A DNA stretch of 64,000 nucleotides from contig JAZTXX010000018.1 of assembly GCA_045636645.1 (NCBI GenBank), positions 2,896 to 66,895 of the forward strand. Reading direction: 5' to 3'. The notes under the pieces were generated by a model, which worked only from the letters and a program-made list of their open reading frames with translations, did not search any database and was not told the origin of the DNA. Every line of letters begins with the position of its first letter. Position 1 is the first letter of the stretch. Below are positions 1 through 13,485 of the stretch, piece after piece. The position numbers and the translations under genes were made by a program. This stretch comes from Candidatus Nanosyncoccus sp. Lineage in GTDB: Bacteria; Patescibacteriota; Saccharimonadia; Saccharimonadales; Saccharimonadaceae.

Positions 1-1209
1 AAGTACGCCGCGAAAGATCCTCTATCGGGCGAAATTGGCAAAACAATCATCTTTACAGTAAGCCAGAAGCATGCCGAAAAAATCGTCCAAATGCTCAATC
101 AGATAGCAATGGAGCAGTTCCCAGGCAAGTATAATTCCGATTTTGCGATTCAGATTACCAGTAACGTGCGCGACGCGCAACAGTTTTCAATTAATTTCTC
201 CGAAAATAATCTAAGAGGACATACTAGATGGTTGCCAGATTACGAAAGTAGTCGCGCAAGAGTTGCTGTCACCGTTGGCATGATGACAACTGGCTATGAC
301 TGCTCAGACCTACTTAACCTTGTGTTTATGAGGCCAGTATTTAGTCCTTCAGACTTTATTCAGATGAAAGGCCGAGGTACACGCCTTCATACCTTTAAAT
401 ACGTGGACTACGAAAATGGCGAAAAGGTTACCGAGATTAAGAAGGAAAACTTCAGGATTATCGACTTCTTTGCTGTATGTGAATATTTTGAAGAAAAATA
501 TGATTACGATGCTCCATTAGTAGTGCCGGCAAATAAATCCCAAAATATAACGATTACACCGCCAACTGCCGGTGTAGATACCTTCCCTCCAGAAGTGGTT
601 GTAGTAAGAGGAGTAGAGTTAGGTGAAGATGATGAGTTGCAGAACCTTGACCAAACGGTCGTAGGAAAAGAGGGGATGCGCGTAGATCGCGAAATGTTCC
701 GTAGCTTCCAGGATGAAGTCAAATCCAATGAAGAGTTTGTTAAACTCTACAACGATGGCAATATTGACGAAGCCCTTAGTTACCTTAAGACGGAAATACT
801 TGGCGAAGATAAGCCTAAATTCTATATGACTCCAGAGAAGATTCGCAAAATCTTTAACCTTGACCGCAGGCTAGATCTTCGCGAGATTCTTGATCTCATC
901 ATGAACAATAAGGAACCTTTAACAAAAGCCCAATACATCCAACAGAAATTCGATGAATTTGTCTCAGATAAGAATCTAAGCGAAGAGCTGGTTGGCGAGT
1001 CTTATAATGATGCGTTCGAATTATTTGACGCATATATCACCAATAGAAAAGTTGCTGAAGCGATAGATAATAAAGACTTTAGCCTTCTCGCTGGTTTTGG
1101 CTCTGTCACTATTGAACAGCTGAAGAGACTTGGAGTCGATAGAATGAATCAAATTGTCGGATATATCAGAGATTACATTAATGTAGAAAAACTAAGAGTA
1201 AAGGATTAA
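1..1209 (+). CDS. hsdR: Type I restriction enzyme R subunit, C-terminal part (5' end outside window)
   Basis: The frame is open from nt 1 (KYAAKDPLSGEIGKTIIFTVSQKHAEKIVQM..), so the Met at 91 is internal. Helicase C-terminal motifs are present (MTTGYDCSDL; QMKGRGTRL). hsdM/hsdS follow after 3 nt. Confidence 0.8.
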   Translation, partial: KYAAKDPLSGEIGKTIIFTVSQKHAEKIVQMLNQIAMEQFPGKYNSDFAIQITSNVRDAQQFSINFSENNLRGHTRWLPDYESSRARVAVTVGMMTTGYDCSDLLNLVFMRPVFSPSDFIQMKGRGTRLHTFKYVDYENGEKVTEIKKENFRIIDFFAVCEYFEEKYDYDAPLVVPANKSQNITITPPTAGVDTFPPEVVVVRGVELGEDDELQNLDQTVVGKEGMRVDREMFRSFQDEVKSNEEFVKLYNDGNIDEALSYLKTEILGEDKPKFYMTPEKIRKIFNLDRRLDLREILDLIMNNKEPLTKAQYIQQKFDEFVSDKNLSEELVGESYNDAFELFDAYITNRKVAEAIDNKDFSLLAGFGSVTIEQLKRLGVDRMNQIVGYIRDYINVEKLRVKD

Positions 1210-1212
1210 TAA

Positions 1213-2661
1213 ATGGACTACACCCACTTCAAACAAATCATAGATAACTCCCGGGATATCCTCATGGGCAAATTGCCTAGCCCAATCGCTCAGGTAGATG
1301 CAATCTCCTATGCTTTAATCTATAAGTTTATGTCTGATACGGACGATGACTCTGCGGCCCTAGGCGGTAAGCGCACTTACTTCTCTGGCGAATATGAAAA
1401 ATATAGCTGGCATAATTTAATGAGTCCAACTATCACCGGCGCAGATCGCGTAATTCTTTACCGCAACGCTCTTGAGAATATGAGCCGAAATCCAAACATC
1501 CCTCCTCTATTCCGTGAGATTTTTAATGGCGCAACGCTCGGCTTTACAGATTCAAATACGCTTAATCTATTCCTTCGCGAAATCGATAAGATTAAACAGA
1601 GCTCTGGCGACTCCATTGGTGATGCTTACGAATACCTGCTTTCCACTATGGGCTCTCAGGGTAAACTTGGCCAATTCCGTACGCCTCGCCACATCATTAA
1701 TATGATGGTCGAGCTTATTAATCCAGATAAATCTGATAAGATCCTGGATCCGGCTTGTGGTACTGCAGGCTTCCTAATTTCTGCCTACAACTGGATTAAG
1801 AAGAAACACATCGAAAAAGAACGTTTAAATAGTGAAGATATCGAAAAGATTCATCGTAACTTCTACGGCTTCGATATCGAGCCTAATATGACTCGCATTG
1901 CGCGTGTAAACTTGTTCTTGCACGGTTTTAAATCTCCTCACATTATTGAGCACGATACCCTTAGCTCAGAAGACTACTGGGATGATAGGTACGACGTTAT
2001 TATTGCCAATCCTCCATTCATGACTCCAAAAGGCGGTATTACTCCACATAAAAAGTTTGGCATTACATCTAACCGTGCTGAGCTTCTCTTCGTTGACTAT
2101 ATTGCCTCACATCTAAAGCCAAATGGTCGTGCAGCGGTTATTGTTCCGGATGGCGTCTTGTTTGGAAGTAGCACAGCGCATAAATCACTCCGAAAAGAGA
2201 TAGTCGAGAACAAGAAGCTTCAAGCTGTCATTTCGATGCCTTCAGGTGTATTTAAGCCATATGCTGGCGTCTCTACAGCGATTTTAGTATTCACTAACTC
2301 AAATAGCGAAAGAACTGACAAAGTTTGGTTCTACGACATGAAAACGGACGGGTACAGCCTGGACGATAAACGTTCAAAGCTTAAAACAAGTGACATTCCT
2401 GATATTCTTGCAAGATTCAGAAATCTAGATGGCGAAAAAGACCGCACGCGTAGCGAACAATCATTCTTTGTAGATAAAGAAGAGATCGTTAAAAACGGCT
2501 ACGATCTAACGATTAATAAATACAAGGAAGTAGAATGCGAAAAAGTCGAATATCCGCCAACTTCTGAAATCATTGCTGAGATTAAGAAGCTAGATAAAGA
2601 AGCTTCCGAAAGTCTGGCCGAACTCGAAAAATTATTAAACGAAACAAATCCGGATTTGTAG
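1213..2661 (+). CDS. hsdM: Type I R-M N6-adenine DNA methyltransferase subunit
   Basis: Carries FRTPRHI, motif I DPACGTAGFL and motif IV IIANPPFMTPKGG. The gene is tightly packed between hsdR and hsdS. Confidence 0.9.
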   Translation: MDYTHFKQIIDNSRDILMGKLPSPIAQVDAISYALIYKFMSDTDDDSAALGGKRTYFSGEYEKYSWHNLMSPTITGADRVILYRNALENMSRNPNIPPLFREIFNGATLGFTDSNTLNLFLREIDKIKQSSGDSIGDAYEYLLSTMGSQGKLGQFRTPRHIINMMVELINPDKSDKILDPACGTAGFLISAYNWIKKKHIEKERLNSEDIEKIHRNFYGFDIEPNMTRIARVNLFLHGFKSPHIIEHDTLSSEDYWDDRYDVIIANPPFMTPKGGITPHKKFGITSNRAELLFVDYIASHLKPNGRAAVIVPDGVLFGSSTAHKSLRKEIVENKKLQAVISMPSGVFKPYAGVSTAILVFTNSNSERTDKVWFYDMKTDGYSLDDKRSKLKTSDIPDILARFRNLDGEKDRTRSEQSFFVDKEEIVKNGYDLTINKYKEVECEKVEYPPTSEIIAEIKKLDKEASESLAELEKLLNETNPDL

Positions 2662-2662
2662 A
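2644..2662 (+). repeat. 5' shufflon repeat at the hsdM/hsdS junction
   Basis: acaaatccggatttgtaga contains a 16-bp perfect palindrome, acaaatccggatttgt. The same 19 bp occurs in both arms of the 5868-5897 palindrome. Confidence 0.85.
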
Positions 2663-2663
2663 T

Positions 2664-3776
2664 ATGATTACAAAATTAGAAGATTTCTTAGAAGAAGTTA
2701 CCGAAAAGACAACACAGAGTGACCAATACCCAGTTCTTACATCATCAAAAAACGGATTGTTTCTGCAGGATGATTATTTCAATAAACAAGTAGCAAGTAA
2801 GGATAATAAAGGTTACAAAATTATTCGACGCGGCGAATTTACTTATCGTGCAATGAGCGACACAGGAGAATTCTATCCAAACATGCTCGAATGTGCGGAA
2901 ATTGGCATCGTAAGCCCTGCTTATCCGGTATTTAGAATTTCAAATGATATTGTTCTGCCAGATTATTTGAAGTACTATTTTAGATCGAGCAATTTCCAAA
3001 AATCCATCACTTCTTTTGTGCAGGGTAGCACGCGCGCAAGTATGAAGTTTGCCAAAATGAAAACTATTAGCATTGATTTGCCTAGTATAGAAGAGCAGCA
3101 AAAAATAGTTCTAAAGTTAGACCTTGTTAAAAATCAGACAAAGCAAAAAACTGAAGAACTAATGCAGTTAGATAACCTCATCAAAGCCCGATTTGTCGAG
3201 ATGTTTAAAGGAAAATATGACACGTTTAAGGTCGGCGAAAAGCTAAAAACAACTTCTGGTGGTACACCAAAAAGTTCAGTAGGCGAATACTATGATGGCG
3301 GTAACATTCCGTGGCTAACGAGTGGCGAAGTTAATTATGGAGATATTACTAAACCGTCGAATTACATAACAGAAAAAGGATTAAACAATTCGTCAGCGAA
3401 ATGGGTTCCTGAGAATTCGATCGTAATCGCTATGTACGGTGCTACCGCAGGTAAAGTGGGGATTGTGAGATACAGAACAACTACTAACCAGGCAGTTTGT
3501 TCTGTCTTGCCAAATGATGATTTTGATCAGGAGTTTTTACGTTACGCTTTTCAGGATATCAGTGAGGAACTAACTTCTAAAGCGATTGGTGGCGGACAGC
3601 CGAATATCTCTCAGACAATCATAAAGAACAGCTGTATTGTTGATGTGCCGATTGAAGAGCAAAAACGTTTTGCTTCTTTTGCCAAGCAGGTCGACAAATC
3701 AAAATTTGCCGTACAAAAGTCGCTCGAAAAGACTCAACAATTATTCGATAGCTTGATGCAGGAGTATTTTGGCTAA
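2664..3776 (+). CDS. hsdS: Type I R-M specificity subunit (expressed copy)
   Basis: ATG lies 2 nt after the hsdM stop. Two variable halves are separated by the conserved LDNLIKARFVEMF, and the protein ends in the conserved FAKQVDKSKFAVQKSLEKTQQLFDSLMQEYF. Confidence 0.9.
   Translation: MITKLEDFLEEVTEKTTQSDQYPVLTSSKNGLFLQDDYFNKQVASKDNKGYKIIRRGEFTYRAMSDTGEFYPNMLECAEIGIVSPAYPVFRISNDIVLPDYLKYYFRSSNFQKSITSFVQGSTRASMKFAKMKTISIDLPSIEEQQKIVLKLDLVKNQTKQKTEELMQLDNLIKARFVEMFKGKYDTFKVGEKLKTTSGGTPKSSVGEYYDGGNIPWLTSGEVNYGDITKPSNYITEKGLNNSSAKWVPENSIVIAMYGATAGKVGIVRYRTTTNQAVCSVLPNDDFDQEFLRYAFQDISEELTSKAIGGGQPNISQTIIKNSCIVDVPIEEQKRFASFAKQVDKSKFAVQKSLEKTQQLFDSLMQEYFG
3171..3206 (+). repeat. Central shufflon repeat, copy A (hsdS)
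   Basis: gataacctcatcaaagcccgatttgtcgagatgttt. 33 bp are identical to the reverse complement of 5338-5370. Confidence 0.9.
3687..3709 (+). repeat. 3' shufflon repeat, copy A
   Basis: caggtcgacaaatcaaaatttgc is identical to 6937-6959. 20 bp are identical to the reverse complement of 4799-4818. Confidence 0.85.
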
Positions 3777-3782
3777 AAAGTT

Positions 3783-3823
3783 ATTCCTTTTGTTAGTGGA
3801 GGTTCTAATCTAACAAAAGGAGT
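3783..3823 (+). promoter_or_regulatory. Stem-loop whose 3' arm contains the recombinase Shine-Dalgarno
   Basis: ccttttgttag (3786-3796) pairs perfectly with ctaacaaaagg (3810-3820) around a 13-nt loop, and the stem extends to about 14 bp. The SD aaaggag (3816-3822) lies inside the arm, and the ATG is at 3829. Confidence 0.55.
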
Positions 3824-3828
3824 TATTA

Positions 3829-4797
3829 ATGGAAGATACCATTAAATACATTTTGGTGGATATGGATGAATATCTCACCGCAAATCAATCACAAAAACTA
3901 CAACGCGTGCTCGTTTCGCGCCTAACGAAAGAAACGAGATCAATAAATGGCATTTCAAACGACAATTATCTGTCAATGTTTTTGAATGCCAAGAAGATAG
4001 AAGGATGCTCCGAGCGGACTCTATCCTACTATAAAACCACCGTAGAAAAGCTACTAGATGAAATAGATGATCCAATACGCAAAGTGACCACCGATGATAT
4101 ACGTGATTACCTTGCAAACTATCAAGGTCTAAATGATTGTAGTAAAACAACGATCGACAATATTCGTCGCAACATCTCGAGCTTCTTTACCTGGCTCGAG
4201 GAAGAAGACTACATTATCAAAAGCCCAATGCGCAGAATCCATAAAATCAAAACTACAAAAACCGTAAAAGAAATTATCTCAGACGAAGAAATAGAAAAAA
4301 TGCGCGATAGATGTAGTAGTTTGCGCGATTTGGCGATTATTGACCTTCTCTACTCGACCGGAATTAGAATTGGCGAGCTCGTAAGGCTCAATATTGATGA
4401 CATAGACTTCGAGGAACGTGAATGTATCGTTTTCGGCAAAGGCGACAAAGAACGTCGCGTATATTTTGACGCTAAAACTAAAATACACCTGATGGGCTAC
4501 ATAAATAGCCGTTCTGACGCAAATCCTGCCCTTTTCGTGACGCTTGACGCGCCTTACGATAGATTGCAGATATCTGGCGTAGAAATCCGCCTGAGGCACT
4601 TAGGACGCGAATTAGGCATAAATAAAGTTCATCCTCATAAATTCCGCCGTACTATGGCGACTCGCGCAATCGACAAAGGAATGCCAATCGAGCAAGTTCA
4701 GAAATTACTAGGTCATTCACAAATCGATACTACCATGCATTATGCGATTGTGAATCAAACGAATGTAAAAGTTGCACACCGCAAGTTCATTGCTTAG
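3829..4797 (+). CDS. Tyrosine site-specific recombinase (XerC/D-like) embedded in the hsdS locus
   Basis: N-terminal SAM-like core-binding region. The catalytic signature reads YSTGIRIGEL (Arg), HPHKFRRTMAT (H-x-x-R) and LGHSQIDTTMHYA (His/Tyr). Confidence 0.85.
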   Translation: MEDTIKYILVDMDEYLTANQSQKLQRVLVSRLTKETRSINGISNDNYLSMFLNAKKIEGCSERTLSYYKTTVEKLLDEIDDPIRKVTTDDIRDYLANYQGLNDCSKTTIDNIRRNISSFFTWLEEEDYIIKSPMRRIHKIKTTKTVKEIISDEEIEKMRDRCSSLRDLAIIDLLYSTGIRIGELVRLNIDDIDFEERECIVFGKGDKERRVYFDAKTKIHLMGYINSRSDANPALFVTLDAPYDRLQISGVEIRLRHLGRELGINKVHPHKFRRTMATRAIDKGMPIEQVQKLLGHSQIDTTMHYAIVNQTNVKVAHRKFIA

Positions 4798-5865
4798 CGC
4801 AAATTTTGATTTGTCGACTTGTTTATAGAATGCCGAGAATTGTTCTTGTAGTGTGATTGGCGGCAAAGCAACTTTGTATCCATCAAGGAATGACACTGGC
4901 GTTCTTCTTTGCCCAGCACTACCAGTCATGTTTGCTTCGGCATCCTTTCTGAATGATTTAAATGATGTTAATACGTAAATCCAATATGGATTACTTATAC
5001 CATCAATCGGACGTAATACGTGGAACTCGGTTGAACCAAAACCTATCTCATTCTTTAAACCTTTTGCAACTGCGCCCTTGCCATTCTCCATGCAAGGTGT
5101 AATTTTCGCAAATAATACATCGTTTTCCGCGAAATACGTAAAGCCTTTTTTGACTTCTTCGTAAGGCCTAATATCTGTCGGATCGATATCGCCTTTCTCG
5201 GAGACTGACGGCATAGGAATAAAAGAAACCTCTATGTCTGGCTTCAACCTTTTGTCCTTTGCTTTTTTAGGATTCAACTCGCAACATTCACCCAATTCTT
5301 TTACTCCATAGCAAAACGGATCGGCTCCTGGCGTTCCAAACATCTCGACAAATCGGGCTTTGATGAGGTTGTCTAGCTTTGCTAACTCATCTTCTTTTTG
5401 ATGAATTAGTCGTTTAATAGTATTCAAACTCTGAACGATTGATTTTTGATCTTTTTCGTTATGAAGATCCAATTCGTCAGTAAGCCATCTTTTTAAATCA
5501 AGTGTTTTGCCTTGCCGGCTCCCCCTATTTGCATAGATAGAAAACATTCTTTCATTGTTAGCCGCCAATAGGTAATCCAAATAGTCATAGTTCGAAATCT
5601 TAATCTTGTACGTGTGATATGCGGGAGAAACTGAGTATGTTTCGTCATCTCGTAGTATTCCGATGTCGATCTGATTAGAGCCCATACCAACCGTTAAAGT
5701 TCCTTTATGGATTATTTTATTCTTAGAATAGTCCTTTGCTAGTTCTTTTGAGTAAATACTCTCGCGTGTTCTAATTCCATATTTGCCTACAGCTACCGGT
5801 TTGTATTTATTGTCGGTGTTTCTTTCCGAATATTCTTCGATCAAATCGCCCAATTTAACTTTCAT
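4717..5865 (-). CDS. Silent hsdS cassette 1 (inverted relative to hsdS)
   Basis: Full two-TRD HsdS layout with LDNLIKARFVEMFG and FYKQVDKSKFA. HsdS-like sequence stops at the 3' repeat (4799-4821). The ORF tail 4717-4798 is antisense read-through into the recombinase gene. No promoter-like box lies upstream. Confidence 0.75.
   Translation of the reverse strand: MKVKLGDLIEEYSERNTDNKYKPVAVGKYGIRTRESIYSKELAKDYSKNKIIHKGTLTVGMGSNQIDIGILRDDETYSVSPAYHTYKIKISNYDYLDYLLAANNERMFSIYANRGSRQGKTLDLKRWLTDELDLHNEKDQKSIVQSLNTIKRLIHQKEDELAKLDNLIKARFVEMFGTPGADPFCYGVKELGECCELNPKKAKDKRLKPDIEVSFIPMPSVSEKGDIDPTDIRPYEEVKKGFTYFAENDVLFAKITPCMENGKGAVAKGLKNEIGFGSTEFHVLRPIDGISNPYWIYVLTSFKSFRKDAEANMTGSAGQRRTPVSFLDGYKVALPPITLQEQFSAFYKQVDKSKFALSNELAVCNFYIRLIHNRIMHGSIDL
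4799..4821 (-). repeat. 3' shufflon repeat, copy B (inverted)
   Basis: The plus strand reads gcaaattttgatttgtcgacttg, starting 2 nt after the recombinase stop codon (4795-4797). Confidence 0.85.
5335..5373 (-). repeat. Central shufflon repeat, copy B (cassette 1, inverted)
   Basis: The reverse complement reads gacaacctcatcaaagcccgatttgtcgagatgtttgga. It shares a 33-bp perfect match with copy A and a 34-bp perfect match with copy C. Confidence 0.9.
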
Positions 5866-5867
5866 AC

Positions 5868-5897
5868 TACCTCTACAAATCCGGATTTGTAGAGGTA
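5868..5897. repeat. 30-bp perfect palindrome between the two silent hsdS cassettes (two head-to-head 5' repeats)
   Basis: tacctctacaaatcc|ggatttgtagaggta. It lies 2 nt from the cassette-1 start (5865) and 4 nt from the cassette-2 ATG (5902). Confidence 0.9.
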
Positions 5898-5901
5898 TTT
5901 G

Positions 5902-7005
5902 ATGAAGATTAATGAAGTAATAAAATCATTGCCAGCATCAAATGCTGCAGTAAAGAACACTGCTTCTTCTGAACCAAAAAACGGTTGGTTTCCTGCATAT
6001 AGCGCATCCGGACAAGATGTTTGGCTTCCTGAATATCGCTACGACAAGAAAGGGATTGTAGTTAGCGCGGTTGGAGCAAGGTGCGGAAAAGCATTTAAAG
6101 CCGACGGGAAATGGAATATATGCGCCAATACTCATCCATTAATCGTTGAAGAATCGAAAGCGCTTCGTGATTATTGTTGGTACATGATCAATGATGAAAA
6201 TTGGTGGATTAAGGGCGGTACAGCCCAACCGTTTGTAAAGGTTAAAGATTCTTTTAATCGCGAGCATCATTTTCCTACCTTGAAAGAACAAAAAGTAATA
6301 GTCGATCAACTAGACACAGCTCGTCTACTGATAGAGCAGAAAGAATTGCAATTGAAACAACTTGATAGCCTCATCAAAGCCCGATTTGTCGAGATGTTTG
6401 GAGCACCTGGTACCAACCCTAAAGGCTGGAACGAGATTAAGCTAGGCGAGGTCTGCGACCTCCAAAATGGTTATGCGTTCAAATCTAGCGACTATATTGA
6501 TAAATCTAGTGTCTTGAATTGTAGGATGAGTAACATTAGGCCAGACGGAGGTTTTAATGCGGAATACCATCCAAAATATCTTCCTGAAGAATATTGGAAT
6601 AAGTGCTCAGGGTATCGATTATTTGACGGTGACGTAATCATCGCAATGACAGATATGGCTAGCGACCCAAAAATTCTAGGAGTTCCGACAATAGTGTCTA
6701 CGAATGGGAAGAAGTTTCTTTTAAATCAACGTGTTGGAAAACTCTCATTTCTTCATGACGATCGAATAAATAGGGTTTACTTGATGCATTCACTTGGACA
6801 AAAATATGTCAGAAAAGAACTCGCAAAAAGTGCCGCAGGTAGTACACAAATAAATGTTGGGAAACCAGCAATTTTAAACATTGACATTTATGAGCCACCG
6901 AGATTTCTTCAAGACCAATTTGCAACCTTCGTCGCCCAGGTCGACAAATCAAAATTTGCTGTCTACTCCGCATTGAGCTACCTGAGAAAAATTATGAAAA
7001 TATGA
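5902..7005 (+). CDS. Silent hsdS cassette 2 (direct relative to hsdS, head-to-head with cassette 1)
   Basis: Two-TRD HsdS layout with LDSLIKARFVEMFG and VAQVDKSKFAV. It has a non-canonical short tail after the 3' repeat. ATG at 5902 (the track starts at TTG 5899). Confidence 0.75.
   Translation: MKINEVIKSLPASNAAVKNTASSEPKNGWFPAYSASGQDVWLPEYRYDKKGIVVSAVGARCGKAFKADGKWNICANTHPLIVEESKALRDYCWYMINDENWWIKGGTAQPFVKVKDSFNREHHFPTLKEQKVIVDQLDTARLLIEQKELQLKQLDSLIKARFVEMFGAPGTNPKGWNEIKLGEVCDLQNGYAFKSSDYIDKSSVLNCRMSNIRPDGGFNAEYHPKYLPEEYWNKCSGYRLFDGDVIIAMTDMASDPKILGVPTIVSTNGKKFLLNQRVGKLSFLHDDRINRVYLMHSLGQKYVRKELAKSAAGSTQINVGKPAILNIDIYEPPRFLQDQFATFVAQVDKSKFAVYSALSYLRKIMKI
6364..6402 (+). repeat. Central shufflon repeat, copy C (cassette 2)
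   Basis: gatagcctcatcaaagcccgatttgtcgagatgtttgga. Confidence 0.9.
6937..6959 (+). repeat. 3' shufflon repeat, copy C
   Basis: caggtcgacaaatcaaaatttgc. Confidence 0.85.
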
Positions 7006-7068: not shown

Positions 7069-7989
7069 ATGGACATATCCAAGATGTCTGCGCAACAACA
7101 AGAAAAGTATTTAGTCGAAAAAATCTTCAAAATCCTTAAGGAGTACGGCCAGCCAATGACGCGTGCCGATCTAAAAGAAGTATTGTCTGATCGTGACGAC
7201 AGTATTGCGGACTACATAAAGTTTGAACGAACTAGCGAGAAAACACAAAATACATATCATCCATTTCTTTTTAAATTTAACTTCGCAATTAAAAATCTTG
7301 CTATCGCTGGCCTAATAACAAGTGAAGGCAAAATTGCTTTAACGGAAAAAGGCATTAATTTAAATGCAGCAGATTTCAATGTGGACAAAGATGTATACGA
7401 CATAAGTAAAACCTATTGGAAAGAAAAGCACAAAGAATATCTTGCAGAAAAAGAGCAGGAAGAAGCTGGAGACGATAGTAAATTAGAGAAGTCAGGCCCA
7501 CAAGAAGTCTATAATGAAAACCTTAAAGCCAAATTACTAGACGCTATTGCTAAGATGTCTCCTGGAAAATTCGAGGCATTCTCGCGCGCACTTCTAAAGA
7601 AAATGGGTGTAGATTTTACCGAAAAAGGCACGAATATTAGCAATGATGGCGGAATCGACGGTTTTGGCTATCATAGAGACTCTAACGATTTTAGAACCAC
7701 TCGCGTAGTCATCCAATGTAAGAGATATAATGCCGGCGATGTTTCTTCTCCGGAAATTGACCGTTTCTTGGGTGCTATGAACAAAAACCAGGCCGATTAC
7801 GGTATTTTTATTACTAATAGTAGATTTACGGTGTCGGCAAGAAAGGCGGCCGTTGAAGGCTCACCCGTAACGCTTATTGACGGTGACGAACTAGTCCGCC
7901 TAATCATCAAATACGAACTATTCCTTGTTCCAGTACAAACCTATGAGCTTACCGATTTTTACAAAAGTGAAGACGAACAGACTCAATAG
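7069..7989 (+). CDS. mrr: Mrr-family (Type IV) restriction endonuclease
   Basis: N-terminal winged-helix-like region. The C-terminal Mrr catalytic core reads SNDGGIDGFGY ... VVIQCKRY (D..(E/Q)xK) followed by ADYGIFITNSRFT. Confidence 0.75.
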   Translation: MDISKMSAQQQEKYLVEKIFKILKEYGQPMTRADLKEVLSDRDDSIADYIKFERTSEKTQNTYHPFLFKFNFAIKNLAIAGLITSEGKIALTEKGINLNAADFNVDKDVYDISKTYWKEKHKEYLAEKEQEEAGDDSKLEKSGPQEVYNENLKAKLLDAIAKMSPGKFEAFSRALLKKMGVDFTEKGTNISNDGGIDGFGYHRDSNDFRTTRVVIQCKRYNAGDVSSPEIDRFLGAMNKNQADYGIFITNSRFTVSARKAAVEGSPVTLIDGDELVRLIIKYELFLVPVQTYELTDFYKSEDEQTQ

Positions 7990-8116
7990 CCTCCTTCATT
8001 CCACATTTTGAGCAAATCTTAGTCTTATTATCCCTACGCGATAGCGCAGGATAGCCGATATAATGAGCATCGCATTTCGGGCATTTGCGACGCTTTTTGA
8101 CGTTCTTTTTATCCAT
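7949..8116 (-). CDS. Unlisted 55-aa zinc-ribbon protein (below the ORF-track cutoff)
   Basis: Hand translation gives MDKKNVKKRRKCPKCDAHYIGYPALSRRDNKTKICSKCGMKEAIESVRLHFCKNR*. It has CxxC-x19-CxxC and an SD (aaggag) 7 nt upstream of the ATG. Its 3' end overlaps the mrr 3' end by 41 nt (convergent). Confidence 0.55.
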   Translation of the reverse strand: MDKKNVKKRRKCPKCDAHYIGYPALSRRDNKTKICSKCGMKEAIESVRLHFCKNR

Positions 8117-8233
8117 ATTCAAATCTCCTTTTCCCCTGCGAGGAAGGATATAACGAGCAAGAGCAACTTACTCTCCCTCCAATCAATTGCGGCTCATCCT
8201 CGCAAGGTGTTTGTATTTAACCTTAATTTGCAA

Positions 8234-8242
8234 ATTATACAA
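8234..8242 (-). promoter_or_regulatory. -10 box (TTGTATAAT) for the zinc-ribbon ORF
   Basis: The plus strand reads attatacaa. It predicts a ~110-nt leader containing a long-range stem: tgcgagga at 8137-8144 pairs with tcctcgca at 8198-8205. Confidence 0.35.
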
Positions 8243-8283
8243 GTTCTTGTTGTATCCTAACACCTTACGACCCCAAGAAGATA

Positions 8284-8292
8284 TGGTATAAT
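8284..8292 (+). promoter_or_regulatory. Extended -10 box (TGGTATAAT) for the 8305 ORF
   Basis: Lies 12 nt before TTG 8305 and is divergent from the 8234-8242 box. Confidence 0.4.
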
Positions 8293-8304
8293 ATAGATAA
8301 CTAA

Positions 8305-9072
8305 TTGGAAGTTGTAGTGCCTGAAGATGTAGCAAAATTTATAGATCGACTTATCGCCCTTCACTTTGAGGGCGGATGTTTGATTAATGCTATCGACGAG
8401 GCAAAAAATGATCCTCAAGACGAAGAAACTTTCAATATAATCTGTCATCTCCTTTCCTGTGCTGATGAAGATATCGATAGGAGCAAAATCAAGAGTACTT
8501 ACGATCTTTTAGAATATAAAACGAATGAATGGATCGTATCGTGCATCGACATGCTTGCCAATATAAAACCTCAACGCTTTATCTTCAATTTCACTAATAA
8601 TAGCATTAGATATAACGAAGATGACGATAAATACTTACTGCTAAGAGAACAAACCGTATTAGATCTTAAATTACTCGAAGAGATAATTCCAGAAATCGAG
8701 CGCGAATACGAAGACGGTCACAAGCAGCTCTTCTATGATGACGATAAAGATCTCAAGGTAAGCTACGATCCAAAAACTCGCACAATCCACGTCGGTAACA
8801 AAGTAGTACGTTTCCGCGAGGACGCACCGTTCACTCCTGCTCTTTGCGAAATTATGTTTAAGGACCCAACAAAACTTTACGAATTACGCGATTTCCAGAC
8901 CGTCTGGGATGATTTGTATGATTACATAGGTAATGAACGCCCTTCGGACTGGCACCGCGTCTACGAGGTCTTAAAACGCCTTAACGAGCGCATTCGTAAT
9001 ATCGCCGGAATAGATGATCTATTTGAACTCAATACAAAATCAGTCAGAATCAATCCTAAATACTTAAAATAG
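8305..9072 (+). CDS. Hypothetical protein, possible C-terminal winged-helix DNA-binding domain
   Basis: The 255-aa ORF has a non-ATG start (TTG 8305 or GTG 8317). The C-terminus (..ELRDFQTVWDDLY..HRVYEVLKRLNERIRN..SVRINPKY) loosely resembles OmpR/PhoB-type wHTH. No firm motif was found. Confidence 0.4.
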   Translation: MEVVVPEDVAKFIDRLIALHFEGGCLINAIDEAKNDPQDEETFNIICHLLSCADEDIDRSKIKSTYDLLEYKTNEWIVSCIDMLANIKPQRFIFNFTNNSIRYNEDDDKYLLLREQTVLDLKLLEEIIPEIEREYEDGHKQLFYDDDKDLKVSYDPKTRTIHVGNKVVRFREDAPFTPALCEIMFKDPTKLYELRDFQTVWDDLYDYIGNERPSDWHRVYEVLKRLNERIRNIAGIDDLFELNTKSVRINPKYLK

Positions 9073-9227
9073 CTCAATATTATCGCAATAATAACGCTGA
9101 ACTCTCTTTTTGTATCCTTGCAATATGGAATGAAGAGGTAATATAACGTATCAGAAAGACAAGAAACTGGAGCAACAAGCGCTCGTAAAGTTTCTAGAAA
9201 TATTAATCGATATAGACAAGCGAGAGC

Positions 9228-9569
9228 ATGTCGTTAATAAGGATGACGACGATGAATAGCTTTATATCGGAAATTGAAATAATGCCAGTAAAGCCGCATG
9301 GCGGACTGGTAGCCTTCGCAAGCTTTGTGCTGTACGGAACGATCTACTGTAGTTCTGTCGGCATTATGACGCGACTAGATGGCTCATATAGACTCACCTT
9401 TCCAACCAAAAAGGTTGGACTGAATAGCTTCGGAATATTCTACCCGATAGACAGATATGTTGGGCAAGAAATAGAAGAGGCAGTGATTAGTAAATATGAA
9501 GATGTAATGAGAGCTAGCGATGATCGATACTGTGATTCTCCGAGTGAACTACCCCAATTTCAGGATTAG
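9228..9569 (+). CDS. SpoVG-like protein
   Basis: IEIMPVKPHGGLVAFASFVLYGTIYCSSVGIMTRLDGSYRLTFPTKK..GIFYPIDRYVGQEIEEAVISKYEDV follows the SpoVG pattern (kAfasv...v.dikv....G.f..mPs.k....d...Pi). The real start may be ATG 9252. Confidence 0.55.
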   Translation: MSLIRMTTMNSFISEIEIMPVKPHGGLVAFASFVLYGTIYCSSVGIMTRLDGSYRLTFPTKKVGLNSFGIFYPIDRYVGQEIEEAVISKYEDVMRASDDRYCDSPSELPQFQD

Positions 9570-10731
9570 CCCGAGCGTTTATCGTAAGTTCTCTCCTTCT
9601 GCTCATGGCATCTTTGGACCGCCATACTATTCTTTTGGATCCGGAAAAGTTATTAAATGCGTACTGCAGCTAAAGGCAAAAGATAAGAAGCTAGGCATAT
9701 ATCAGCCACGCGTAACACTTATGAAAGCAGTACGAGCCGGCGGTGTTTCTGTATTCTTACATATCGAGTTCTCAGCGCCAAAGATTCTTTATAACAACAA
9801 CTTCGACGAGCTTAACTCTGGCGACTTTAAGGGTGTCTGTCTGGAACTTTATCGCAAGCTATATAAGCTCGGAATTGAGATTAAAAGAAACCAGATAGAA
9901 AGGGCCGAAGTCAAGACGGTCCACTTTGGCAAGAATATAGTCTTTGATGATTACCGAACCGCGGCAAGCGTAATTGGCGATATAGCGAAAGCGAACGTGT
10001 CAACCAGAAAGCAAGCCGATATGCGCGTTTACCGAAACGATGGCGAGGCTTTGCACTTTTACAGCGCAAGTCAGGCCATAGCGATTTATGATAAACGAAG
10101 AGAATTGGCTAAGTCTCGCGTCAGCGAGCGCGGACTACTCGAGAAAGATAACTACTGCCAGCTCACGCTATTTGATAACGTTCGTTCGAAGAAGCCTTTT
10201 GAGGTGGTGCGTGTTGAAGCGAGATATAACACTAAACGTGCGTTCAATACAGCGCTGAAACACGCTCTCGAGAAGGCTAAAGCGAGCGACAGTGTCGCAA
10301 GACTAGCTACGAAGCAAAAGCTTGTATTTATAGATATCTTTAATGAAGAACTAGCCAAGACGCTGTTGGAATATGAGTTCGCGCAGATCGAAGCGAAGAA
10401 CCTAGATCTTAATGAAACGATTACGAATACAGCTACCAGCTTTCTTCATGAAATTAATACGTTAAATCCAAAAGCGACCTTGGCGCAACGGCTAGAGACT
10501 TTGGCGATATGGAGCCTAATGCGCGAAACCGGAAGCCGAGACGTGCGGAAGATGACTGGCGCCAATTCGGCGCAGTGGTCTAGACTTACAAAGAAAATAT
10601 CAAAGATCTACTTTAGAACGAGAAAGAGTAGCTCTACTAGCTACATAGAAGATAAACTGGCAGAGTTTAAACCAGTACGATTACTTGAATACTTTACAGA
10701 ATTAAACAAGGTGCGCGCTGGGCCAAACTAG
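9520..10731 (+). CDS. Putative phage/plasmid replication-initiation protein (gene II / CRI-like)
   Basis: The N-terminal MIDTVILRV.. and the ..LHIEFSAPKILYNNNFDELNSGDF.. block resemble filamentous-phage/plasmid Rep families as I remember them. Not verifiable here. Overlaps the SpoVG-like ORF by 50 nt. Confidence 0.35.
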   Translation: MIDTVILRVNYPNFRISPSVYRKFSPSAHGIFGPPYYSFGSGKVIKCVLQLKAKDKKLGIYQPRVTLMKAVRAGGVSVFLHIEFSAPKILYNNNFDELNSGDFKGVCLELYRKLYKLGIEIKRNQIERAEVKTVHFGKNIVFDDYRTAASVIGDIAKANVSTRKQADMRVYRNDGEALHFYSASQAIAIYDKRRELAKSRVSERGLLEKDNYCQLTLFDNVRSKKPFEVVRVEARYNTKRAFNTALKHALEKAKASDSVARLATKQKLVFIDIFNEELAKTLLEYEFAQIEAKNLDLNETITNTATSFLHEINTLNPKATLAQRLETLAIWSLMRETGSRDVRKMTGANSAQWSRLTKKISKIYFRTRKSSSTSYIEDKLAEFKPVRLLEYFTELNKVRAGPN

Positions 10732-10830
10732 CGCAAATGTAGGGTGGTTCTTTACGGCTATTTTAGTTGCGAATAGCCCAACTCCAAAAGGTCCATTTAT
10801 GATATGGACTTATGAAAGGTTTAGGGTATT

Positions 10831-12398
10831 ATGTTTGATAACATGGGAAACTCTACCCCTGTAAATACCGGCAAAACTAATGAGCCGCAACTAACCAGAA
10901 AAGCTGTTCTATTCGCTCGCGTATCAACAGCGCGACAAGAAAAAGAAGGCTTATCTCTCGATGAAATTCAGTTACCGCGAATGCGCGATTATGCAATCGA
11001 GCAAAATTTAAAGATCGTACGCGAATACGCCATTGGCGAAACTGGCGGTAGCTATAAAGAGCGCAAACGCTTCAACGAGATGATCCAGTTCTTAAAGGAT
11101 AATCCGGATGTAACGGACATTATCGCCTTCCGCGTAGATCGTATTACGAGGAATTTCCGCGACGCGGTAACGATTGAAGATTTGCGCATTAAATATGGCA
11201 AGCGCATCCACTGCGTTGACGAAAGGCTGATTCTCTCGGAGAATAGCCGCGCGACCGACCTCACATCTTGGAATGTGAAGGTTTTTGTGGGTCAGGAATA
11301 CCTGAACCGCATTAAGGAAGACGGCCTTAATACGAAGATTAACAAACTGTCGCGCGGCGAGCTACCATGGAGCGCGCCTTATGGCTATGAATTCAAAACT
11401 ATCAGCGTCAGGCCGAAGGTTAAAAACGTCGTTCCTGTAGAACCGGCCGCGTCGATTGTAAAAGAAGTATTCTTACTCTTCTCAACCGGAACTTATTCAT
11501 GTAGAACCTTAGCAAGACTAATGAACAAGAAATACGGCACTAGATTTTCGCAAGGGATCATCCACAAATTCCTAAGATGCGAGTTTTATGTCGGGTTTAT
11601 TATCGATAAAAAAGGCGGAAAGAAATATCCGCATAATTACGAGAAGATAATAGATCGAGAGTTGTTTGATATGGCTAATCAGATACTCGACAAGAGAAAC
11701 CTTAAGGGCGACGACCAAGTACCGAAATATGGTGGCATAGAATCGGCTTATCGTGGACTAATTCGCTGCGAAGAGTGTGGATGCACAATAACGCCAGAAT
11801 TTAAGAAGCGTAAGCTACGACATGGTGGTTATAATTACCACAAATACTACCACTGCACGAACCGACGAGGAGTCCATAAGAGCATGAAGAGCTACACCGA
11901 AGAATATCTTGATGATAAGGTAAAAGAATTCCTACGAGGATTAAGATTAACCGAAACGAAGCTAGACGAGATTAGAAAGGCGTTAGCCGAAGCGCACGCC
12001 GGAAAGATAGATTTCTATCGCGAGCAACGCCGAAGCTTGTCTCAAAAGCGTAAGAAACTAGAAGCGAGACAGCAAGAAGCTTACGATATGTTGATGGACA
12101 AGAGTATTACTCTGGAACTTTATAACCAAAATAACGAGCGATATCGCAACGAACTGGCCGAGATCCAAACGCAGGAAGCCGCGCTAGATCGAGCTGACGA
12201 CAACTTCTATACGAACGCCGGTTACATCTTAAAAGTCTTTAAATATGCCGATAAATTATTCGACGTTGCCACGACGGCCGAAAAAAGAGACCTCATTGGT
12301 CTCATCACGTGCTCGAACCGAACTTTAGGACCTAGCGGACTGATATTACAGGGGTCAGGACCGTTCGCTCGGAACTTTTCTGGTCTAAATTCTGAAAA
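10831..12398 (+). CDS. Large serine recombinase (3' end undefined: no in-frame stop before 13485)
   Basis: Resolvase catalytic region AVLFARVSTARQEKEG, a recombinase domain, a zinc ribbon (CEECGCTITPEF...YYHCTNRRG) and a long coiled coil. The reading frame continues antisense through the tRNA. Confidence 0.8.
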
Positions 12399-12473
12399 TG
12401 GCTGGAGCGGAGGGATTCGAACCCCCGAATGGCGGGACCAGAACCCGCTGCCTTACCACTTGGCGACGCTCCA
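12399..12473 (-). tRNA. tRNA-Gln (anticodon CUG), CCA encoded
   Basis: Reverse complement: TGGAGCG TC GCC AAGTGGTAA GGC A GCGGG TTCTGGT CCCGC CATTC GGGGG TTCGAAT CCCTC CGCTCCA G CCA. All four arms fold. It has the U1:A72 pair and G73 typical of bacterial tRNA-Gln. Confidence 0.9.
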
Positions 12474-12483
12474 AGCTTTAGCT

Positions 12484-12492
12484 ATTGTACCA
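12484..12492 (-). promoter_or_regulatory. Extended -10 box (TGGTACAAT) for tRNA-Gln
   Basis: The plus strand reads attgtacca. Only 10 nt separate the box from the mature tRNA 5' nucleotide (12473). Confidence 0.45.
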
Positions 12493-12507
12493 TATTTTCA
12501 TAAAAAA

Positions 12508-12516
12508 TGCTATAAT
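12508..12516 (+). promoter_or_regulatory. Extended -10 box (TGCTATAAT), 9 nt before ATG 12526
   Basis: Leaderless-type spacing, divergent from the tRNA promoter. Confidence 0.5.
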
Positions 12517-12525
12517 AAGCATACT

Positions 12526-13485
12526 ATGGCTAAGAAAAAAATTTTTACAAATAAACAACTAGCTGAACTTTCTGCCGAAGAAATCATCGACAAGCTGCAG
12601 CACGAGAACTATTCTCTCCTTAATTCGCTTGGTGCCGAGAAGCTCCGTAAAGAGATGGTACCAGTAGGTAAGGCCTGCAATACTGCTATTAATTATTTCT
12701 TTGGGACTACTGGACCGAAGTCTGATCCCGTCAAGCATAGCAAGGCTGCAAGGAAGAAACTGGTTAGAATTCTATCGAAGATTACGCCTGGTTCGTACAA
12801 AGGGATACCGCACGACCAGAAGAATGGCCTCGTCGTAGGATTCAATCATCCTTCACTCGGCGAAATTGCTAGAATCCTCATGATGAAAATCGATATCATG
12901 GGTGATAAGCCAATGTATTTTCCGGTGAATCTGCCTTGGTATGAAGCATTGGCGCCGAATTTCGATCGTATCAAGAAGCTTGGAATTATTATTACTCCAA
13001 CGATTACTCCTTCGACCTGGCAGAAGATGGCCCTTAAAGAGGGAACTAAATTATTCGAGGATGCATCAAGAATCAAGCGTGATTTTCGCGAGATTTATAC
13101 TTCTTTATCTCATGATGCTTTGAAAAATGGCGGCGTAGTATTCGTTGCACCGTCAGCTACTAGGCAAGCTACAGTATTTAAGTCTAAAAATGTCTATGAT
13201 AAGAAAGAAGATATTATTCCGACCATGTCCGTGCTGGCACTTAGTATTTATAAGGATCCTGAGATGCAGTGTGACTTTCTCCCGATAGCCGTGCTCCCAC
13301 CTAAAGGATACAAGCGTGGTTTAAACTTCCGAAAAAAATACAAATTGATTCCGTGTGAGGTCATGACTGCCGATGAGATTCGCAAGAAATACTTTAAGAC
13401 CAAAAATCCTAAACGTCTTGATGGGTTCGATTATGATTTTCACATGCGTATCGCCGAAAAACTCCCGAAAGATTTCTGGTATTAA
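12526..13485 (+). CDS. Hypothetical protein, weak acyltransferase-like features
   Basis: MAKKKIFTNKQLAELS.. is the distal part of the 884-aa track ORF and has its own promoter box. FNHPSLGE and VVFVAPSATRQ vaguely recall PlsC-type HX4D/E and PEGTR blocks. Confidence 0.5.
   Translation: MAKKKIFTNKQLAELSAEEIIDKLQHENYSLLNSLGAEKLRKEMVPVGKACNTAINYFFGTTGPKSDPVKHSKAARKKLVRILSKITPGSYKGIPHDQKNGLVVGFNHPSLGEIARILMMKIDIMGDKPMYFPVNLPWYEALAPNFDRIKKLGIIITPTITPSTWQKMALKEGTKLFEDASRIKRDFREIYTSLSHDALKNGGVVFVAPSATRQATVFKSKNVYDKKEDIIPTMSVLALSIYKDPEMQCDFLPIAVLPPKGYKRGLNFRKKYKLIPCEVMTADEIRKKYFKTKNPKRLDGFDYDFHMRIAEKLPKDFWY

Follow-up and report, generated by a model that had tools for sequence, protein, structure and literature searches.

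The SSV1-type archaeal integrase gene carries the attachment site of the element, attP, within its coding region, and integration splits the gene mid-way and inactivates it. Serine integrases usually integrate within open reading frames (ORFs), as described in PMC9303363. A methods paper describes that the host attachment sites (attB) of tyrosine integrases commonly overlap tRNA genes, with common cores of 20-45 bp which rebuild the tRNA. PMC8092301 furthermore reports M. abscessus prophages whose repressor genes cross attP such that the stop codon or up to seven residues are bacterial, some of these junctions being situated at tRNA 3' ends. Here, we analyse a stretch of 64 kb, hereafter referred to as the window, which corresponds to C18:2896-66895 (contig JAZTXX010000018.1) of the 847-kb genome of a Candidatus Nanosyncoccus species, a metagenome assembly of 22 contigs which is 98.8% complete. 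Within the window, one continuous frame of 884 codons comprises the gene of a large serine recombinase (LSR), the antisense strand of tRNA-Gln(CTG) and the next host gene. We consider it very probable that the LSR frame of an integrative element crosses the junction of this element with the host, that the tRNA variant of this host offers no stop codon and that the run into the next gene is accidental.

With respect to domain order, the recombinase resembles Bxb1, phiC31, A118, TP901-1, CcrB and XisF, since a resolvase catalytic domain, a recombinase domain, a zinc ribbon and a long helical stretch follow one another. Compared with the SSV1-type enzyme, only the last few integrase codons change. 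As in the serine integrases of phages and other elements, the sequence common to both junctions would be very short here, amounting to about 3 nt. Unlike the situation with typical serine integrases, the target is the 3' end of a tRNA gene and the integrase frame itself spans the junction, its stop codon being derived from the host. With tyrosine-integrase islands and prophages the locus shares the targeted tRNA 3' end, the position of the integrase gene beside that junction and the accumulation of islands. It differs from them in that the enzyme belongs to another family, that there is neither a common core of 20-76 bp nor a duplicated tRNA 3' fragment, and that the tRNA is left whole instead of being rebuilt from element DNA. 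The locus is also reminiscent of the integration-dependent immunity of BPs/Brujita, MabB and MabK in which, according to PMC8092301, an ORF of the element crosses attP and integration swaps its C-terminal codons together with the stop. Those mycobacteriophages combine a repressor gene, a tyrosine integrase and a regulatory truncation, whereas here the gene concerned is the serine recombinase itself and a role of its tail is putative.

A preliminary description of this DNA, made from the sequence alone, had pointed out the 884-codon frame, which is indeed listed as a single ORF and is stop-free under translation table 11 (Table 1). Both the claimed peptide ...GWSGGIRTPEWRDQNPLPYHLATLQ and MAKKKIF are present in its translation, the phase match of 565 codons holds ((12526-10831)/3 = 565), and the two promoter boxes claimed are readable in the sequence as divergent extended -10 boxes which are conserved in relatives. 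Both are carried by the spacer of 52 nt between the tRNA and the ATG at 12526. The plus-strand box is conserved beside the homologous gene at loci free of the element, and a generic promoter scan of the window called neither of the two (12484-12492, 12508-12516). TGA closes four of the window's 45 long frames and is therefore taken to be a stop codon in this organism. The tRNA-Gln(ctg) is the sole tRNA of the window and occurs in a single copy among the 47 tRNAs of the genome, which also include one tRNA-Gln(ttg).

Among related genomes the LSR frame ends in ...AAT GGC TGG GGA TGA. Since the sequence from the T of AAT onward is the reverse complement of the CCA end, the discriminator and the acceptor stem, this stop codon belongs to the tRNA gene. 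The protein comprises 526 aa, ending in ...NGWG-TGA, in six of the seven relatives whose gene is readable in full, and the same length is found in 10 of the 15 LSR cluster members listed. The acceptor of the window's tRNA (5'-UGGAGCG/CGCUCCA-3') is changed on both strands compared with the commonest variant (UGGGGAU/AUCCCCA) while pairing is kept. Because this compensated acceptor offers no in-frame stop, the frame, reading ...GGC TGG AGC GGA..., passes all 75 nt of the tRNA. The acceptor UGGGGUG of the seventh relative (locus L058, genome G047) is likewise devoid of TGA, and its frame crosses the entire tRNA to yield 568 aa. For a simulation, loci agreeing in both the tRNA and 60 nt of flank were merged and the LSR frame was placed on the 30 different tRNA-Gln loci thus obtained; it ended after 1-3 codons at 15 loci (8 occupied, 7 empty) and after 25-55 codons at 14 (1 occupied, 13 empty), the window being the only locus at which it continued for 361 codons. 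All 13 empty loci without a stop inside the tRNA closed it after 25-55 codons. Hence, the long fusion needs two conditions, namely a stop-free tRNA variant and an open, in-phase spacer, and the in-phase continuation into the next gene looks like chance. Reading into the tRNA, by contrast, is systematic among LSR loci (see below). The earlier supposition that integration had replaced the distal codons is right insofar as the last codons are host tRNA sequence; a loss is not implied, as the host-supplied stop is the normal state of the gene.

According to the mechanism that we propose, the element adjoins the only tRNA-Gln(CTG) gene of this ruminant-gut Saccharibacteria genome at its 3' (CCA) end. 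The LSR gene lacks a stop of its own before the junction, and its frame enters host DNA to end at the first stop of the antisense tRNA. The commonest acceptor provides this TGA three codons in, giving the protein of 526 aa. With the stop-free acceptor of the window, the frame continues through the tRNA and the spacer and is, by chance, in phase with the host gene.

Codons 1-522 of the frame constitute the LSR proper. Pfam identifies Resolvase (PF00239, aa 25-136, 2.5e-10), Recombinase (PF07508, aa 206-289) and Zn_ribbon_recom (PF13408, aa 307-369), PHROG matches the integrase phrog_95 at 5.3e-58 over aa 14-489, and the catalytic part (aa 22-139) matches the PDB entries 3guv and 3bvp (TP901-1 integrase). 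The translation contains the motif ...FARVSTARQ..., the RVST portion of which we take to hold the nucleophile serine, and many charged, heptad-like residues are discernible by eye between aa 370 and 470. Near-identical genes are present in Candidatus Saccharibacteria and Ca. Nanosyncoccus genomes from goat, sheep and buffalo gut. Eight of 11 loci in the genome collection share 96-99% identity over residues 1-516 and the remaining three are fragments extending to residue 516, two of them being remnants; the LSRs of G011 and G017 are 98% identical to the window copy. Alignment with homologous LSRs, suggested previously as a check, reveals that the near-identical copies are shared only to residue 516, and the similarity of 39 other LSR matches stops by the same residue (at residue 521 at most in a re-run). 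Purifying selection acts on codons 1-515: compared with locus L054, 76 of them differ, 68 synonymously and 8 non-synonymously, and three further copies give synonymous/non-synonymous counts of 85/8, 86/6 and 119/18. All seven of codons 516-522 are changed. Since codons 1-515 are conserved and the following seven are not, the functional LSR ends near ...PFARN with a tail free to vary, which fits a gene whose final codons depend on its landing site. Deleted remnants of the element are still attached to tRNA-Gln at two loci, L061 (JAFRMK010000009.1) and L062 (CALIXF010000009.1); one of them keeps only the last ~240 nt of the recombinase gene, while the other is devoid of the N-terminal two thirds.

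An exact 18-mer of the LSR 3' end is found in 11 of 369 genomes of the genus, and in all 11 the tRNA-Gln(ctg) is situated 23 nt away. The comparison with empty tRNA-Gln loci called for in the preliminary description could be made, as such loci are found beside the gene of 319 aa in G002, G004, G021, G044 and others. The tRNA is located directly upstream of this gene, recombinase-free, in G002, G004 and G021, and a search of 200 genus genomes provided many further empty sites, including that of G044. Occupied and empty forms of one host site thus both exist, as expected for site-specific integration. Genome G068 contains the LSR, the tRNA and the 319-aa gene in the order of the window, with TGA present. 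Over 3,788 nt, the elements of the window and of G011 share 93.7% identity, compared with 69-70% for the flanking host genes; the element has moved between species recently.

The position of the right junction emerges from the sequences on both of its sides. The 23 nt before the tRNA read cttttggactcaaaaacaaaaaa in 10 of 11 genomes (with 1-2 single-nucleotide polymorphisms in two of them), the window alone deviating. The tRNA beside the LSR occurs in four variants across these 11 genomes, and the DNA past its 5' end is unrelated in nearly all. Each LSR-adjacent variant matches a variant of an empty site (G002, G021, G192, G044), the stems being compensated on the far strand; the window's tRNA is identical in 75 of 75 positions to the empty-locus tRNAs of G150 and G044, the 5' flank in G150 being different from that of the window. 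Since the adjacent tRNA variants are host-type and both stem strands are changed together, the junction must lie left of acceptor position 8. Moreover, a public gut metagenome contig shows the same 23 nt, then TGGCTGG, and then a fifth acceptor sequence. In the ten copies other than that of the window, element DNA therefore gives way to host DNA within or just before TGGCTGG, which is the CCA end. For the window copy, the junction is placed at the CCA end by homology, since its 23 nt differ. The crossover presumably took place in or beside the trinucleotide 'aTG' at the CCA end and was presumably made by the LSR. The independent left contexts L054 and L055 read ...a-TG-cttc, so that 'aTG' would be common to them and to the right junction, which reads ...aaaa-TG-gctgg. 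We reject a T-loop crossover because the acceptor 3' strand is host-type in the four tRNA variants and because no displaced tRNA fragment was found at the left end of the element or elsewhere in the genome. The earlier idea that the C-terminus of the recombinase overlaps its attachment site inside the tRNA consequently stands as far as the frame crosses the junction; the junction itself maps to the CCA end instead of lying well within the tRNA.

The distal gene stands alone in other genomes. Homologues sharing 69-76% identity are present in 11 of the 40 relatives searched, with frames of 324-341 aa in nine and of 371 and 423 aa in two, none of them being fused. In the ESM Atlas, the 319-aa protein falls among Saccharimonadota clusters of 319-324 aa whose automatic name is phospholipid/glycerol acyltransferase (score 0.99); Pfam, PHROG and NCBIfam yielded no match for it. 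A genuine, selected recombinase-acyltransferase fusion of ~880 aa might be deduced from the frame being open and in phase and from the gene caller giving one protein. Yet, the separate homologues keep their own conserved -10 box and ATG, the cluster lengths are those of the distal gene alone, the LSR measures 526 aa in most copies with no other LSR match reaching beyond the residues given above, and the linker consists of an antisense tRNA plus two promoters; a conserved architecture of ~880 aa, sought among the homologues of either half, occurs in none of them. We therefore regard a selected fusion as extremely improbable. The 884-codon frame is an accident and an annotation chimera, and its product, if made at all, would have no selected function. 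The mis-annotation that had been predicted has come true, as exactly this 884-aa chimera is deposited in a public protein collection (NCBI source) from which the 319-aa protein is absent. An artefact of a different kind, i.e. two strains joined by the assembler via the shared 75-nt tRNA or a base error which removed a stop codon, would be in line with the fragmented metagenomic origin of the genome, with the fact that the element-tRNA block is located ~21 kb from the 319-aa gene in G011 and G017, and with positions 12340-12398 not being bridged by any SRA contig. We nevertheless hold such an artefact to be very unlikely. The tRNA is shared without a difference by two other genomes and its acceptor strands pair perfectly, the order LSR-tRNA-319-aa gene recurs in G068, the adjacency of tRNA and gene is the ancestral state at many empty loci, and the absent stop follows from the tRNA variant without any single odd base.

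Two further explanations concern the window copy itself. Its crossover could have occurred ~23 nt further left, at 12370-12376 by a GTTC...GAAC palindrome, in which case the 23 nt would be host flank and seven more codons host-derived. Identity to all other copies ceases exactly at 12375, and a partial resemblance is seen in the flank of one empty locus, L106 (ggtctaattt). On the other hand, the flank ...ttttctggtctaaattctgaaaa occurs beside the tRNA at none of the empty loci with the same tRNA type, and no flank resembling 12376-12398 was found among the empty sites in general; partial matches at six empty loci proved to be nothing but AT-rich flanks. In addition, the 23 nt do align to the other copies, albeit only with indels, as a diverged homologue would, and in the other ten genomes they are constant across four tRNA variants and hence element DNA. 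A shifted crossover thus appears unlikely to us. Similarly improbable, in our view, is a grounded, decaying remnant in which the missing stop would be part of the decay. Deleted remnants (L061, L062) do exist beside the same tRNA, and the attL and attR cores of the window mismatch under one placement. The window's LSR, however, is of full length with the RVST serine motif and all three domains, its changes are predominantly synonymous (68 versus 8), and the host tRNA sequence explains the absence of the stop without any mutation of the element.

Besides the LSR, the conserved module of the element comprises a zinc-ribbon ORF, a Phage_CRI-like Rep and two small genes. The first third of the 255-aa gene product cannot be aligned to other element copies. 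The 403-aa gene itself has no direct Pfam (E 0.01) or PHROG match; 12 of 58 homologues carry PF05144, and the Atlas score of 0.96 is to be read with recognition being below the usual level. A Rep-like gene is present in 38 of 301 genomes of the order, a tally which includes the unpublished G791, and in G040 it is located directly upstream of an LSR abutting tRNA-Asn. Many of the Rep-like homologues (P0003-P0058) are situated on contigs with a longest length of 3.8-4.5 kb, which may point to small replicons that exist in free form and are as large as the conserved module. In PMC6813254, an inovirus survey, inovirus sequences are reported for genomes of the Candidate Phyla Radiation, and its gene-content figure includes serine and tyrosine recombinases among integration genes without tying them to these genomes. 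Compared with inoviruses, the element has a Phage_CRI-like Rep, and no morphogenesis gene is seen among its five ORFs. The points at which four unrelated left contexts diverge lie no more than 3 nt apart, at the 3' end of the zinc-ribbon ORF, which suggests a unit of 4.4-4.7 kb. While attR is defined, candidates for attL are the end of the zinc-ribbon ORF (~7966-7981) and a position left of the restriction-modification genes. A search for the left junction from the side of the neighbouring Mrr gene returned one weak homologue only, which ends short of the C-terminus.

Several observations weigh against the reading preferred here. The 23 nt of the window differ from those of all ten other copies. 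The att sites obtained from the small-unit model show no dyad symmetry, with 6 of 28 (attP) and 5 of 28 (attB) mirrored positions, a level expected by chance since 351 of 500 shuffles reach the best value at any centre, and under this model the attL core of the window is AG versus TG at attR. Past the end of the zinc-ribbon ORF, L054, L056 and L058 remain ~90% identical for at least another 2 kb to the left, and the type I restriction-modification genes on that side include stretches which the window and G011 share at 73-91% identity; the mobile unit may thus be larger, or there may be two elements in tandem. Counts of copies in related genomes are, moreover, non-independent. Finally, an excised circle, an attP or a bridging read was found in none of the collections and runs searched. 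The viral contig collection contained nothing with an LSR or Rep alignment, the phage and plasmid collections gave no match to Rep, and a metagenome scan with an 18-mer of the LSR end yielded 21 hits, all of them unrelated GC-rich DNA. Out of 24 sequencing runs listed, 20 (gut, feces and manure metagenomes or unlabelled) contain at most 26% of the sampled words, and there is no RNA run among those listed; run X8, one of four examined, provides near-identical pieces at a depth of 3-5, none of which spans 12340-12398. A joint from 8298 to 12531 is regarded by us as spurious, as one side measures only 21 nt and both ends, as we read them, lie in tataat-rich promoter sequence. As to the diverged 23 nt, the left ~700 nt of the window copy are the most diverged part of the element. 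Both stretches would be contiguous in the excised circle, which makes a single mosaic tract across attP conceivable; we offer this as an idea, not as a result.

Table 1. Features of the window, with positions counted from its first nucleotide.
Feature	Position	Strand	Basis
Whole 884-codon frame: LSR, antisense tRNA-Gln, intergenic promoters and next host gene	10831..13485	+	ORF list
LSR proper, codons 1-522, element-encoded up to the junction	10831..12398	+	Pfam, PHROG, relatives
Terminator-like hairpin and T-run inside the LSR coding region, 96 nt past the tRNA 3' end	12287..12303	-	Terminator scan
The 23 nt adjoining the tRNA (LSR codons 516-522), divergent solely in this genome	12376..12398	+	Comparison of 11 genomes
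Host gene of tRNA-Gln(CTG), with the right element junction at its 3' CCA end	12399..12473	-	tRNA scan
Extended -10 box of the tRNA promoter, TGGTACAAT	12484..12492	-	Direct reading; equivalent TGnTAnAAT box in relatives
Extended -10 box, TGCTATAAT, 9 nt 5' of ATG 12526, near-leaderless	12508..12516	+	Direct reading
Stand-alone host gene, 319 aa, acyltransferase-like	12526..13485	+	Homologues, ESM Atlas
Zinc-ribbon ORF (CPKC...PALSR.DN.T.IC..CG), left end of the conserved module, overlaps the Mrr stop	7949..8122	-	Homologous ORF in other copies
255-aa element gene, no family	8305..9072	+	No profile matches; mosaic identity
113-aa SpoVG-like element gene	9228..9569	+	PF04026 at 1.1e-5, below the curated cut-off
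403-aa element gene, probable Phage_CRI-like initiator of rolling-circle replication	9520..10731	+	Atlas 0.96 to PF05144 clusters
hsdM (the locus also holds a helicase-C fragment)	1213-2661		Part of the 1-7005 locus
Three hsdS genes	2664-3776, 4717-5865, 5899-7005	+, -, +	Part of the 1-7005 locus
Tyrosine recombinase	3829-4797		Part of the 1-7005 locus

The hairpin within the LSR coding region is a weak feature, as the terminator scan found one where 0.7 are expected, although its sequence is identical in other copies. At empty sites a hairpin with a T-run is located directly 3' of the tRNA, and the hairpin of the element could stand in for this host terminator displaced by integration. The zinc-ribbon module recurs elsewhere in the genus at 76-82% identity: with a 711-nt query and E values of 1e-8 or better, 43 of 368 genomes matched some part of 7990-8700. 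Each of nine fetched copies (L137-L145, from nine genomes) is situated 1.2-5 kb from tRNA-Lys(ctt) or tRNA-Glu(ttc), the tRNA at which a small element of this size range, with a homologous zinc-ribbon ORF, comes to its end. Two of the nine have an LSR detectable by this query, and most may use another recombinase; one is accompanied by a different LSR (22% identical) whose frame ends 58 nt inside tRNA-Lys. To the left of the module, an Mrr-family restriction endonuclease gene (7069-7989) overlaps the convergent zinc-ribbon ORF by 41 nt with its last codons and stop, and this stop may also be supplied across a junction. The type I restriction-modification locus at positions 1-7005 of the window probably includes a specificity shufflon and has several inverted repeats, of 93 nt (73%), 26 nt (92%) and 19 nt (perfect). 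In two genomes (G011:C2 ~228.4-251.5 kb and G017:C2 ~8.6-32.8 kb; L035-L038), restriction genes, element and tRNA-Gln lie together in an inverted block when compared with the 319-aa gene and the former 3' flank of the tRNA, one endpoint being located ~25-30 nt from the tRNA 5' end between the divergent promoters. At an otherwise empty site (L111, genome G192), a 21-nt direct copy of the tRNA 3' end, TGGCTGGGGTGAAGGGATTCG, is present 47 nt downstream of tRNA-Gln and looks like the relic of another kind of element with a T-loop crossover.

The contact between LSR genes and tRNA ends extends beyond this element. Among 19 LSR loci in the 40 relatives, 12 frames end inside the antisense 3' part of a tRNA (three of Gln, two of Asn, three of Arg and one each of Leu, Ser, Met and Tyr), with overlaps of 13-174 nt. 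Four more have an opposite-strand tRNA 9-347 nt downstream (347 nt for L033, by coordinate subtraction), and three are without a tRNA nearby or at a contig edge. Across the phylum, PF07508 is detected in 86 of 151 genomes (150 drawn plus that of the window). At the best-scoring 30 of these loci, with the longest frame that covers the Pfam match taken as the ORF, 13 frames terminate within an antisense tRNA (overlap 11-127 nt), which four of them traverse completely. One frame ends 4 nt before a tRNA, another overlaps a same-strand tRNA, and 15 are without an opposite-strand tRNA within 400 nt. Since the genomes are related, these fractions are descriptive only. For comparison, we calculate from 47 genes of ~76 nt each and a genome of 847 kb that tRNA genes make up ~0.4% of such a genome. 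As about four in ten of the sampled Patescibacteria LSR genes read into them, tRNA 3' ends appear to rank among the main targets of serine integrases in these bacteria with their tiny genomes, although it is tyrosine integrases with which such targets are usually associated. The full-text literature that we searched, subscription journals and supplements aside, yielded no description of this pattern for Saccharibacteria or Patescibacteria.

A crossover within the last codons of the recombinase might, in addition, act as a built-in sensor of the integration state which is widely used in Patescibacteria, a proposal that we regard as doubtful. The excised form would then be predicted to encode an LSR of 547-559 aa and a convergent zinc-ribbon protein of 104-168 aa, a candidate directionality factor, and integration would exchange both tails for host sequence. 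Integration would also set the strong tRNA promoter head-on to the integrase gene, with the element-borne terminator 96 nt in, and the tail swap together with the opposed promoter would silence or alter the integrated recombinase. If this were true, host tRNA variants that remove the stop, as found here, would be costly mismatches limiting the host range.

As a single locus, the arrangement described here is ordinary; what appears to be new is the wider pattern of serine recombinase genes taking their stop codon from the adjoining tRNA gene. The public 884-aa 'recombinase' is a chimera which hides the host gene flanking the tRNA and misreports the length of the integrase, and the tRNA-derived tail (...GWxGGIRTPEW...) can serve as a marker of this annotation error. 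If the sites are confirmed, compact recombinases with tRNA sites would be natural DNA-insertion tools for the hard-to-engineer Saccharibacteria.

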